Source of the DNA: Escherichia coli
GTDB lineage: Bacteria > Pseudomonadota > Gammaproteobacteria > Enterobacterales > Enterobacteriaceae
Assembly: GCF_003334255.1 (NCBI RefSeq)
Contig: NZ_QOWU01000004.1
Direction: 5' to 3' (one strand)
Length of the DNA stretch: 64,000 bases
The translations under genes were made by a program, and so were the position numbers. A model generated the notes under the pieces. It had not been told where the DNA came from, made no database searches, and worked only from the letters and a program-made list of their open reading frames with translations. Shown one piece after another: positions 26,903 to 29,542 of the stretch. The stretch's first letter is position 1. Each line of letters begins with the position of its first letter.

Positions 26903-27138
26903 GATAGTGCCCTTTTTCTGAGATGGAAAAAGGGTGTCATTCAAAATCGACATACCTTCCTTTAAGGTATTTATTTGCCCAATACATATATTGAGATTTA
27001 ACTCATAATTACTTCCTAAAGTGTAATATTTTATTTTTTAATATATACGCCTACAATTTCCTGGAGTAAATAAATAACAATTAACAAGCATAATATTGCC
27101 ATTGATAAAATAGCATGCCATAAAAGGACTTTTCAGGG

Positions 27139-28317
27139 ATGAGTAATATTGTTTACCTGACAGTAACGGGAGAACAACAAGGAAGCATCTCCGCAGGTTG
27201 TGGGACTTCTGAGTCTACAGGTAATCGTTGGCAGAGCGGGCATGAGGATGAAATATTTACATTCTCACTCTTAAATAATATTAATAATACGGGGCTTGGT
27301 TCACAGTTCCATGGTATAACATTTTGTAAATTAATTGATAAAAGCACTCCATTATTTATTAATTCCATTAACAATAATGAACAATTATTTATGGGATTTG
27401 ACTTCTATCGAATAAATAGATTTGGTAGATTGGAAAAGTATTATTATATACAACTAAGAGGCGCTTTTTTATCGGCTATTCATCACCAGATCATTGAAAA
27501 CCAACTGGATACAGAAACAATAACTATTAGTTATGAATTTATCCTCTGTCAACATCTTATCGCAAATACCGAGTTCAGCTATTTGGCACTCCCTGAAAAT
27601 TATAACCGTTTGTTTTTACCAAATTCAAAAAACCAAACAAATAATCGTTTCAAAACGTTAAACAGCAAAGCTATTGGCAGGCTACTTGCTGCTGGTGGCG
27701 TATACAATGGGAACATTGAAGGATTCAGAGATACTGCGGAAAAACTGGGTGGAGATGCAATAAAAGGCTATGATCAAATACTAAATGAAAAAACAGCGGG
27801 CATAGCGATAGCAACAGCATCTATTCTTTTAACAAAGCGTTCTAATGTTGATACATATACAGAAATAAATAGTTACTTAGGCAAACTTAGAGGTCAACAA
27901 AAACTTCTTGATGGTATAGACATAATAGAAATAATATACATTAAGAGACCTTCAAAAGACTTAGCTAACTTACGAAAGGAGTTTAATAAAACTGTAAGAA
28001 AAAATTTTCTTATCAAACTTGCAAAAACCTCCGAAGCATCTGGAAGATTCAACGCCGAAGACCTTTTAAGAATGAGAAAGGGCAATGTTCCTCTAAATTA
28101 TAATGTTCACCATAAACTATCTCTAGATGATGGTGGTACTAATGATTTCGAAAATTTAGTATTAATCGAAAACGAACCATATCATAAAGTTTTTACTAAC
28201 ATGCAATCACGAATAGCTAAGGGAATATTAGTAGGTGAAAGCAAAATCACTCCCTGGGCCATTCCATCTGGCTCAATTTATCCTCCCATGAAAAATATTA
28301 TGGACCACACAAAATGA
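27139..28317 (+). CDS. yhhZ: Hcp-like N-terminal domain fused to a C-terminal HNH-type nuclease toxin domain
   Basis: 392-aa ORF in an AT-rich islet; N-terminal ~150 aa Hcp-like; C-terminus carries NVHHKLSLDDGGTNDFENLVLIENEPYHKVF, an HH...DGG...N...H beta-beta-alpha-metal motif. Confidence 0.85.
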   Translation: MSNIVYLTVTGEQQGSISAGCGTSESTGNRWQSGHEDEIFTFSLLNNINNTGLGSQFHGITFCKLIDKSTPLFINSINNNEQLFMGFDFYRINRFGRLEKYYYIQLRGAFLSAIHHQIIENQLDTETITISYEFILCQHLIANTEFSYLALPENYNRLFLPNSKNQTNNRFKTLNSKAIGRLLAAGGVYNGNIEGFRDTAEKLGGDAIKGYDQILNEKTAGIAIATASILLTKRSNVDTYTEINSYLGKLRGQQKLLDGIDIIEIIYIKRPSKDLANLRKEFNKTVRKNFLIKLAKTSEASGRFNAEDLLRMRKGNVPLNYNVHHKLSLDDGGTNDFENLVLIENEPYHKVFTNMQSRIAKGILVGESKITPWAIPSGSIYPPMKNIMDHTK

Positions 28318-28808
28318 TGACTAAAACCCAAATAAATAAATTAATAAAAATGATGAATGATTTAGACTATCCATTTGAAGCACCGCTCAAGGAATCATTT
28401 ATTGAAAGTATAATCCAAATAGAATTTAATTCTAATTCAACTAATTGCCTGGAGAAGTTATGTAATGAAGTTAGTATTCTTTTTAAGAATCAACCTGATT
28501 ATCTTACTTTTTTAAGAGCAATGGATGGATTCGAAGTTAATGGATTACGATTATTTAGCCTCTCGATTCCAGAACCTTCAGTTAAAAACCTTTTTGCCGT
28601 AAATGAATTTTATAGAAATAATGATGATTTCATAAACCCTGATCTACAAGAACGGTTAGTGATCGGGGATTATAGCATTTCAATATTTACTTATGACATT
28701 AAAAGTAACTTTTTTGAAATTAGAGATAATATTGGCACAGAAAATATATTCAGTTCGTTTAGTGATTTCTCTTCATTCTTAAACGAAATCATGGACAGTT
28801 GTTCATAA
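28314..28808 (+). CDS. yrhA: candidate immunity protein for the YhhZ nuclease
   Basis: 164-aa ORF whose ATG overlaps the yhhZ stop (ATGA), same AT-rich composition; function inferred from position only. Confidence 0.65.
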   Translation: MMTKTQINKLIKMMNDLDYPFEAPLKESFIESIIQIEFNSNSTNCLEKLCNEVSILFKNQPDYLTFLRAMDGFEVNGLRLFSLSIPEPSVKNLFAVNEFYRNNDDFINPDLQERLVIGDYSISIFTYDIKSNFFEIRDNIGTENIFSSFSDFSSFLNEIMDSCS

Positions 28809-28902
28809 TAATCAAAAGGAAACAAAAATCATTGTAAACCATGCCATCTTTTTAGAGATTACCAGCAGAAAATTCCTTGTTCGAAATTTAGCAGTGCAAG
28901 CT

Positions 28903-29058
28903 ATGGAAAAACTTACAACGGAACTACACTCCTTAAGTGAGATGGACCGAAGACATGTAGTCTCTATTTTAGCCGAAATAGCTAATGGCTATGATGATTT
29001 TAATGACATGTTGATTTATTTAGAATTTTACCCGAATCATAAGATTCTGATATCTTAA
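28903..29058 (+). CDS. small ORF (51 aa), possibly the K-12 yrhD small protein
   Basis: ATG..TAA frame read by hand (MEKLTTELHSLSEMDRRHVVSILAEIANGYDDFNDMLIYLEFYPNHKILIS); below the ORF-track length cut-off; weak RBS. Confidence 0.3.
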   Translation: MEKLTTELHSLSEMDRRHVVSILAEIANGYDDFNDMLIYLEFYPNHKILIS

Positions 29059-29257
29059 ATAAGAAAATCCCGTTCGACGTTCTGAAAAAGAAATCATAAA
29101 ATATTAGCAGATACTTATTTCGTGACTATATCTTATCCGATGAACTTTTTTCAAAACCAGCATTTAATAATATCTTTGACGAAGATGAACGCGTCTTTGC
29201 TCAATGTATCACACAGGAATAATAATATAACACTCAACAATAATATTTATTATAATT

Positions 29258-29542
29258 ATGATTACTTATCACGACGCATTCGCGAAAGCGAACCATTACC
29301 TTGATGATGCAGATCTCCCGGTCGTCATTACTCTACATGGACGCTTTAGCCAGGGCTGGTATTTCTGTTTCGAAGCACGAGAATTTCTCGAAACTGGAGA
29401 TGAGGCCGCGCGCTTAGCTGGTAACGCACCTTTTATTATTGATAAAGACAGTGGTGAAATTCATTCTCTGGGAACGGCAAAACCGCTGGAAGAATATCTA
29501 CAGGATTACGAAATAAAAAAGGCTACCTTCGGCTTGCCCTGA
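29258..29542 (+). CDS. yrhB: small conserved protein YrhB
   Basis: 94-aa ORF recognised as YrhB. Confidence 0.8.
   Translation: MITYHDAFAKANHYLDDADLPVVITLHGRFSQGWYFCFEAREFLETGDEAARLAGNAPFIIDKDSGEIHSLGTAKPLEEYLQDYEIKKATFGLP

Follow-up and report, generated by a model that had tools for sequence, protein, structure and literature searches.

The Hcp-ET1 protein of Escherichia coli is a nuclease effector of a type VI secretion system (T6SS). In the account of Ma et al. 2017 summarised in PMC6730261 and PMC6099711, it is delivered by T6SS2, has 'predicted HNH-DNase activity' and is neutralised by ETI1, the product of the downstream gene; the passages concerned name O104:H4 and strain 55989 as carriers of the two genes, there an orphan pair. 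Here we describe an AT-rich islet with the genes yhhZ and yrhA in a 64,000-nucleotide (nt) stretch of E. coli DNA (contig NZ_QOWU01000004.1 of assembly GCF_003334255.1), called the window below. Strain 55989, a named Hcp-ET1 carrier, has the locus of the window in one copy at 99.9% DNA identity, and we therefore equate yhhZ-yrhA with hcp-et1/eti1; the two are very probably the same gene pair. With a probability of about 85%, we read the islet as the known orphan T6SS effector-immunity cassette yhhZ-yrhA (Hcp-ET1/ETI1). The pair described from Shiga toxin-producing and enteroaggregative E. coli and the pair in the window have in common the fusion of Hcp and HNH DNase, the immunity gene directly 3' and the orphan position, and no sequence-level difference between them was detectable. 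A preliminary description of the window had likewise recognised the known yhhZ-yrhA locus, in line with earlier mentions of YhhZ as an 'evolved Hcp' with a degenerate HNH domain (Blondel et al. 2009, PMC2907695) and as a member of His-Me finger group 32 (Jablonska et al. 2017, PMC5714182). The parts of the cassette are as follows.

27139..28317, + strand: yhhZ, 392 amino acids (aa), Hcp-ET1-type T6SS effector (Hcp, linker and HNH DNase), by family, fold and locus matches
27139..27588, + strand: Hcp (TssD) tube-protein domain, residues 1-150, by TIGR03344, Pfam, PDB and Foldseek
27652..27870, + strand: conserved helical linker, residues ~172-244, motif NSKAxGRLLAAGG[VI]YNGNIEGFR..., by alignment of 15 homologs
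27871..28317, + strand: HNH (beta-beta-alpha-metal) nuclease core, residues 245-392, by conserved residues, model and fold match
28314..28808, + strand: yrhA, 164 aa, predicted cognate immunity protein (ETI1) of SUKH/SMI1-KNR4 fold, by NF038335, fold matches and gene pairing

The yhhZ DNA is 100% identical to that of the K-12 lineage and 99.9% to that of strain 55989. Residues 1-147 of the protein score 118 bits against TIGR03344, twice the curated cutoff of 58.9, and the protein also matches Pfam T6SS_HCP (PF05638; E 2.5e-11) and, by sequence, the PDB entry of Hcp3 (3he1; E 2.3e-11). The structure model aligns with the Hcp structures 6a2v, 3he1 and 4hkh (Foldseek E 1e-8 to 1e-4, probability 1.0). 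Behind the Hcp domain follows the linker, which by alignment and tblastn is common to all Hcp-toxin alleles and to the DUF8093-HNH proteins introduced below, and after which the variable C-terminal toxin starts; its helices (177-230) are modelled with low to moderate confidence. The catalytic HH...N...N...H motif is present in the C-terminal core: H324, H325, N335, N339 and H349 are invariant in 15 of 15 enterobacterial homologs from about 10 genera, as are D330, D331 and G333, and H349 is conserved in at least 90% of a 54-sequence alignment that adds distant homologs and Hcp fusions with other toxins. The AlphaFold model of residues 245-385 has a predicted local distance difference test score (pLDDT) of 75-97, and Foldseek aligned the C-terminal model with the pyocin S2 DNase (4qko_B; E 2.2e-3, probability 1.0, root mean square deviation 2.5 A over 77 columns, 28% identity). 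The Hcp-like nuclease fusion named in the preliminary description is thus borne out by the family score, the invariant HNH residues and the fit of the model to both kinds of structure. With the HNH DNases of colicins E7 and E9 and pyocin S2, YhhZ has in common the beta-beta-alpha-metal core and the HH...N...H motif. It differs from them in being fused to a T6SS tube protein instead of receptor-binding and translocation domains, and in that the final metal-binding His of the colicins is not obvious when the motif is read in YhhZ.

YrhA belongs to the NCBIfam 'YrhA family' (NF038335; 122 bits). Its AlphaFold2 model, built with 35 homologs, has a pLDDT of 89 and a predicted template modelling score of 0.86, and the best PDB matches are all SUKH/SMI1-KNR4 proteins, with YobK (2prv) at the top and Lin2918 (2icg), 3d5p, 2pag and Syd/3ffv after it; the YrhA profile matches 2icg with E 0.001. 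Among the immunity proteins that accompany nuclease-type polymorphic toxins, those of the SUKH type are the most common, and YobK is the antitoxin of the Bacillus subtilis toxin YobL. In this fold YrhA differs from the colicin immunity proteins, whose Im fold consists of four helices. The ATG of yrhA and the TGA of yhhZ overlap in the sequence ATGA, and no Shine-Dalgarno sequence lies upstream. For the translational coupling proposed in the preliminary description, the overlap and the immunity-type fold of the downstream product hold, while the coupling itself would fit the ATGA and the missing Shine-Dalgarno sequence.

The gene pairing extends well beyond E. coli. We searched with YhhZ residues 151-392 and scanned one genome per species; loci fetched for comparison carry numbers beginning with L. 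A YrhA-like gene lies directly 3' of the HNH toxin in nearly all enterobacterial loci (L020-L048; Enterobacter, Citrobacter, Yersinia and others), the exceptions being L040 and, in Yersinia, L070 and L075. Such a gene also follows the HNH toxin on one IncHI2 plasmid and in one SPbeta-like phage, whereas tblastn found none after the chromosomal HNH-core homologs of Firmicutes, Sphingomonas and cyanobacteria (L046-L091). In the phage, Bacillus phage SPbetaL3 (L096 1558-3915), a 628-aa toxin ends in an HNH core 44% identical to YhhZ and is followed by a 152-aa YrhA-like protein (27% identity, E 2e-4), so the toxin-immunity pairing spans Firmicutes and Enterobacteria. It is this pairing across phyla that gives the strongest in-silico support for YrhA as the immunity partner, and we suggest that YrhA is best read as the predicted cognate immunity protein of YhhZ. 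By inspection the phage toxin seems to begin with an LXG-like domain; if so, its secretion would be of type VII. The Bacillus LXG toxins with SUKH antitoxins (YobL-YobK, SPbeta prophage) compare with our locus in the HNH core (44-45% identity for the toxin of SPbeta-like phages), the YrhA-like partner and YobK as the best structural match of YrhA; the SPbeta-like toxin differs from YhhZ in its N-terminal delivery domain, its host phylum and the lack of the enterobacterial linker.

The matches to YhhZ residues 151-392 fall into two architectures of about 380 aa. The first, Hcp with the C-terminus, is found in E. coli and several Citrobacter species; the second, DUF8093 (PF26362) with the C-terminus, in Enterobacter, Leclercia, Klebsiella, Pantoea, Serratia, Erwinia and others. 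One such DUF8093-HNH gene, that of Enterobacter roggenkampii, is paired with a 166-aa gene downstream; the two make up a cassette amid core or phage-like genes, with no T6SS genes within 8 kb. The HNH core (residues ~245-385) also ends long, otherwise unrelated proteins of Bacillus, Listeria, Clostridium, Paenibacillus, Sphingomonas and cyanobacteria at 40-50% identity. Together with the linker it is present on 591 plasmid records, 489 of them conjugative. On the IncHI2A plasmid NC_021845 (L095 4638-6215) a 353-aa HNH protein, which consists of linker and core, is 47% identical to YhhZ and has no Hcp domain, is paired with a 168-aa YrhA-family protein; the pair lies inside the conjugative transfer region and adjoins traG.

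Such Hcp-less pairs in plasmid transfer regions are one reason to consider that yhhZ-yrhA is a T6SS-independent toxin-antitoxin or addiction module, serving locus stabilisation, stress or abortive infection in the producer, with a vestigial Hcp part. The two-gene toxin-antidote layout, the retention of the cassette in T6SS-free K-12 and the suggestion by Blondel et al. 2009, in the section of PMC2907695 that deals with it, that YhhZ is not tied to T6SS function would agree with this. However, the Hcp domain scores at twice its family cutoff and is under constraint, with a ratio of nonsynonymous to synonymous substitution rates (dN/dS) of 0.39; the order toxin, then immunity gene, together with the SUKH fold, is the pattern of polymorphic toxins and not of type II toxin-antitoxin systems; K-12 survives with a truncated yrhA; and T6SS2-dependent delivery is reported in PMC6730261. 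PADLOC assigned no defence family to the cassette proteins or to the O157 allele described below, which also speaks against such a module, and for which reason an anti-phage reading was dropped. Altogether we find the addiction module very unlikely. Further, one may speculate that the linker (~60 aa, residues 172-235) is a portable adaptor or translocation module that acts with DUF8093 and carries the HNH-YrhA pair across delivery routes. These would then be the T6SS Hcp fusion and the Hcp-less versions in IncHI2 transfer regions and enterobacterial chromosomes, and the retention of yhhZ, including that in T6SS-free strains, would reflect a T6SS-independent role. We hold this to be unlikely.

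We then return to the orphan effector-immunity cassette and its surroundings, for which the following features are needed.

26903..29241, no strand: islet proper; E. coli genomes with yrhB only have 95 unrelated bp in its place; junctions from BLAST against L002
26903..29579, no strand: whole variable region, from the yhhY stop to the ggt stop, 2677 bp, 33.6% GC; at least four E. coli haplotypes and several Citrobacter Hcp-toxin alleles
26903..27138, + strand: AT-rich leader 5' of yhhZ, 236 nt, 29.7% GC
28903..29058, + strand: yrhD, annotated open reading frame (ORF) of 51 aa, truncated in strain YL03
29061..29219, + strand: unannotated pseudogene remnant of an 85/86-aa gene; tblastn 47-49% identity over 53 aa, E ~1e-13
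29258..29542, + strand: yrhB, 94 aa, predicted orphan polymorphic-toxin immunity protein (Imm35), Pfam Imm35 E 4.6e-23
29549..29572, - strand: GC-rich hairpin terminator 3' of ggt, kept in all haplotypes; marks the right end of the variable region

The islet (2339 bp) has a GC content of 32.0%, as against a mean of 53.5% (standard deviation 2.2%, minimum 48.5%) for the other 2339-bp windows of the 64-kb window, a z score of about -9.8. The sliding profile shows an abrupt trough of 0.28-0.35 at ~26900-29300 with 0.45-0.60 on either side, and the GC content at third codon positions (GC3) is 26% in yhhZ, 24% in yrhA and 33% in yrhD against 57-63% in yhhW, yhhX, yhhY and ggt. The 2.3-kb AT-rich islet unlike its flanks that the preliminary description had seen is therefore confirmed, and the GC3 check agrees. 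Comparison with E. coli genomes without the islet places its left edge directly after the yhhY stop codon (26902), which is the left junction in every E. coli haplotype, and its right edge at 29241, 16 nt 5' of yrhB; the 26940-29260 given earlier is therefore accurate within about 40 nt. The placement between yhhY and yrhB stands for the islet proper. It does not stand for the variable unit, which really is yhhY-ggt (26903-29579) as yrhB is absent in some haplotypes; yrhB is a functional part of this unit although the AT-rich islet ends before it. The 20 kb on either side contain core genes only (glg, asd, gnt, yhhWXY, ggt, ugp, liv, rpoH and fts), with no T6SS structural genes, integrase or transposase in that range, as had been stated of secretion apparatus and mobility genes. 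The tRNA scan found none, and the repeat search gave no bracketing repeats and no att-like or inverted ends, only short AT-rich chance matches, so that none of the mobility signatures of an acquired islet (integrase, tRNA site, flanking repeats) was found at the locus. It should be noted that a match to the plant small nucleolar RNA model snoR69Y of Rfam at 28608-28704 (+ strand) reached 31 bits with a gathering score of 45, and was taken as chance in AT-rich DNA.

Homologs of yrhD were not found outside E. coli among the fetched loci. In the remnant at 29061-29219 the start codon is gone and codon 14 is an in-frame stop. Its intact 86-aa counterpart in Citrobacter sp. FP75 comes after an Hcp toxin with another C-terminus, and this 85/86-aa Citrobacter gene is presumed to be the immunity gene of the toxin that precedes it. 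A YrhB homolog with 72% identity stands in the immunity array at the yhhY-ggt site of the same strain, and the order of remnant and yrhB in the window mirrors that of 86-aa gene and YrhB there. We regard yrhB as a predicted immunity gene.

The same site is variable in Citrobacter as well. In C. koseri it holds an AT-rich Hcp-HNH/YrhA pair whose proteins are 71% and 64% identical to those of the window, while the flanking proteins are 85-96% identical, and in C. youngae Hcp-HNH and YrhA are followed by two more small genes. Citrobacter sp. NCU1 has the same Hcp and linker with an unrelated C-terminus and an 89-aa gene downstream. Citrobacter sp. FP75 has a third C-terminus, then the 86-aa gene, the YrhB homolog and an 83-aa gene. 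Away from this site, Hcp and linker are fused to still other C-termini in E. coli, C. youngae, C. sedlakii, Atlantibacter and S. enterica arizonae. In all, at least four C-termini unrelated to one another are joined to Hcp and linker, with a different small gene behind each (L013; L014/L015/L019/L038; L017; L018; L049), and Pfam and NCBIfam gave nothing beyond the Hcp domain for the alternative C-termini and the small downstream genes. Orphan immunity arrays are present in two Citrobacter loci (L013 and L023).

The polymorphic-toxin cassette of the preliminary description is supported by these data, by the domain identities and by three features of the class. The same HNH core stands behind DUF8093, Hcp, a probable LXG-type domain (by inspection) and other N-termini; a constant Hcp with linker carries alternative C-terminal toxins; and orphan immunity genes lie downstream (yrhB, the remnant at 29061-29219 and the Citrobacter arrays). 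The logic is that of the Rhs and CdiA loci, in which the delivery part stays constant, the C-terminal toxin and its immunity gene can be exchanged as a module, and displaced immunity genes gather downstream. From these yhhY-ggt differs in its Hcp scaffold, in having orphan immunity genes but no orphan toxin C-termini, and in being a much smaller locus. Similar in build are Usp / Hcp-ET3-4 with Imu1-3 of uropathogenic E. coli, likewise of the 'evolved Hcp' type, bearing a nuclease toxin at the C-terminus and followed by several immunity genes, but having toxin domains of the pyocin S3 and colicin DNase kinds, other immunity proteins and another chromosomal site.

Two further observations concern the Citrobacter loci. 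A family of 81-91-aa proteins with the motif ETELNxLKxxA..D.NW.W..LDR follows the 'HECREYQRYCNLGW' Hcp-toxin C-terminus, and C. koseri and C. youngae also have its members as orphans behind YrhA. These proteins, which have no Pfam or NCBIfam match, are probably another immunity family, and were located as follows.

L011, ~7700-7950: member of the 81-91-aa family
L015, 8134-8403: member of the 81-91-aa family
L023, 8982-9245: member of the 81-91-aa family
L013, 8855-9106: member of the 81-91-aa family
L014, 3466-3741: member of the 81-91-aa family

Between yhhY and the Hcp-toxin gene, L013, L015 and L023 (~5800-6730) carry a gene of normal GC for a 294-309-aa signal-peptide protein; E. coli lacks this gene.

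The divergence between the window and E. coli YL03 (L093) differs from segment to segment. At the nucleotide level it is 4.9% in yhhY, 4.3% in the leader, 5.8% in the Hcp domain, 4.5% in the yrhD region, 4.9% in yrhB and 4.4% in ggt, against only 0-0.7% in yhhZ codons 151-392 and 1.8% in yrhA (27589-28808). The toxin C-terminus and the immunity gene thus share a more recent history than the segments around them, which suggests that the toxin-immunity module was recently exchanged between E. coli lineages. A breakpoint would lie near the Hcp/linker boundary, at about yhhZ codon 150; both pattern and breakpoint come from one genome pair, are weaker in a second, and are preliminary.

This divergence history, unlike that of the flanks, also bears on the possibility that the islet is ancestral and was never horizontally acquired, its AT-richness being due to local mutation bias or selection and the alleles without it to deletions. 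That C. koseri and C. youngae carry this cassette, likewise between yhhY and ggt, would agree with it, as would the lack of mobility genes, tRNA and repeats. It is difficult to reconcile with a GC3 of 24-26% that persists in two genera next to genes at ~60%, with cassette proteins 64-71% identical where flanking proteins are 85-96% identical, with unrelated cassettes at the same site, and with close toxin-immunity relatives on conjugative plasmids and more distant ones in low-GC Firmicutes and phages. We therefore consider an ancestral islet highly improbable.

To the acquired effector-immunity cassette the distribution in E. coli adds several states of presence and decay, counted in 5426 complete genomes, all of which have the flanks. 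Four E. coli haplotypes occur at yhhY-ggt. The yhhZ gene is present in 3806 genomes (70%), in 3777 of these at full length, and yrhB in 4069 (75%); about 260 genomes have yrhB only, and about 1000 have a 60-bp spacer with neither islet nor yrhB. The foreign composition and patchy distribution expected from the preliminary description are thus seen, as the cassette is not universal and alternative alleles occupy its site. One of these is a DUF4225 insert (1.8 kb, ~31% GC), found in 343 of the 5426 genomes, mostly O157:H7, in copies at least 99% identical. DUF4225 is an experimentally shown antibacterial T6SS toxin domain according to the relevant part of Jana et al. 2022 (PMC9765294), and yhhY-ggt therefore holds alternative orphan T6SS toxin cassettes. 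Like the islet, the DUF4225 effector is an AT-rich orphan cassette at the identical site; it differs from YhhZ in being an unrelated toxin (periplasmic lysis) and in having no Hcp fusion. The O157:H7 insert (L003 2104-3922) encodes a 303-aa DUF4225 protein; on the other strand, a hydrophobic ORF of 138 aa without annotation (3174-3590) overlaps the 3' end of its gene. Two records outside Enterobacteria, a metagenome-assembled genome labelled Flavihumibacter (L012) and a 256-bp Alkalicoccobacillus contig (L043), are 98-100% identical to the E. coli yhhX-yhhZ-yrhA region and are almost certainly E. coli contamination of public assemblies.

Decay takes opposite forms in different strains. In K-12 derivatives (K-12 MC4100, L010) an IS1 element within yrhA leaves a 138-aa product beside an intact yhhZ, a disruption also mentioned in PMC12428005, and a passage of PMC6730261 describes K-12 and B strains as without T6SS genes. 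In O145:H28 12E115 (L094) yhhZ and yrhB are frameshifted and yrhA is intact. A spontaneous yhhZ-yrhA deletion is reported for a clone of an MG1655 topoisomerase I mutant, in a passage that holds no functional information (bioRxiv 10.1101/2024.10.07.617030); it may be an IS1E-adjacent deletion. The dN/dS is 0.51 for yhhZ and 0.28 for yrhA as against 0.01-0.02 for yhhX and yhhY, and selection on the two cassette genes appears relaxed or diversifying, yet some constraint remains.

It is possible, if doubtful, that most carriers keep the cassette for defence only, YrhA (and YrhB) protecting against T6SS-armed relatives and the H-NS-silenced toxin being unused and decaying. The genomes with yrhB alone, the frameshifted yhhZ beside an intact yrhA in O145:H28, the decayed immunity gene and orphan immunity arrays at the site, the relaxed dN/dS of yhhZ and the locus still present in T6SS-free K-12 can all be explained in this way. 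Against it, yhhZ is of full length in nearly all of its carriers, all 15 aligned enterobacterial homologs have the same catalytic residues, the disruption in K-12 hits the immunity gene and not the toxin, and active T6SS2-dependent killing by Hcp-ET1 is reported in PMC6730261.

Silencing of the islet may nevertheless accompany its role as an effector cassette, as suggested by H-NS chromatin immunoprecipitation (ChIP) data and by the tolerance of K-12 for a disrupted yrhA. PMC3661553 (2013) lists yhhZ and yrhA as horizontally acquired and, in Table 1, the 'promoter islands' within them as occupied by H-NS in two ChIP-chip data sets (Kahramanoglou, Oshima). H-NS binding at the locus is also flagged in PMC3946193, and two RNA polymerase binding motifs of that paper map to 28402-28430 and 28721-28750 of the window. 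PMC12428005 names two predicted promoters, yhhZp5 and yhhZp7. In our scans the + strand of the leader had no match to the sigma-70 consensus at the scanner threshold, and a relaxed scan gave 8/12 only; over the whole islet there were 14 promoter-like sites against 12.5 +/- 3.7 in dinucleotide shuffles, which is no excess. Of the 'promoter-like leader' assigned earlier to 26940-27138, the AT-richness is accordingly supported but not the promoter.

Taken as the Hcp-ET1/ETI1 cassette, the locus might work as follows. YhhZ would be a specialised Hcp that is incorporated in, or attached to, the tube of a T6SS whose genes lie elsewhere in the genome. When the T6SS fires its tube into a neighbour, the HNH domain of colicin/pyocin type, attached through the helical linker, would degrade the DNA of that neighbour; DNase-mediated killing is also how the literature cited above would have it. 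YrhA, made from the same transcript by way of the ATGA overlap, would bind the nuclease and protect the producer and its kin. The yrhB gene and the remnant at 29061-29219 would be immunity genes left by earlier toxin alleles at the site, and yhhY-ggt a chromosomal hotspot where alternative toxin cassettes replace one another by recombination. The cassette, foreign in composition and bound by H-NS, may be a silent relic in lineages without a T6SS such as K-12. If it is indeed silent there, as seems probable, this would explain the intact toxin beside a disrupted immunity gene in K-12.

Several points weigh against this reading. The Hcp part of the YhhZ model has low confidence (pLDDT), and Pfam matched the C-terminus weakly (HNH PF01844, E 0.013; PF21431, E 1.9). 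Pfam gave no hit for YrhA even at E 10, neither SUKH/SMI1_KNR4 nor any other model, and a fold search was therefore needed. No promoter for yhhZ was located by the sigma-70 scans. The truncated yrhA of K-12 and the frameshifted yhhZ of O145:H28 mean that the cassette is not in active use in many strains. The host of the window may lack the T6SS2 that delivers Hcp-ET1. Finally, the equation of YhhZ with Hcp-ET1 comes from secondary sources and the identity of the locus in 55989, where a second, diverged Hcp-HNH gene could exist.

The locus itself is already known. The alternative alleles at the hotspot, the decayed immunity gene, the mosaic of modules and the relatives on plasmids and in phages add to it incrementally, within standard polymorphic-toxin biology; the current understanding of T6SS effectors is unchanged by the findings at yhhY-ggt. 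For annotation, yhhZ is not a plain tube protein ('tssD'), and for yrhA and yrhB an immunity function is the best reading. With at least four alleles, the yhhY-ggt interval is a polymorphism of strain-typing grade. The locus shows E. coli storing interbacterial weapons outside its secretion-system clusters, as a small, probably silent AT-rich cassette at a recombination hotspot where toxin C-termini would be exchanged together with immunity genes and older immunity genes accumulate.

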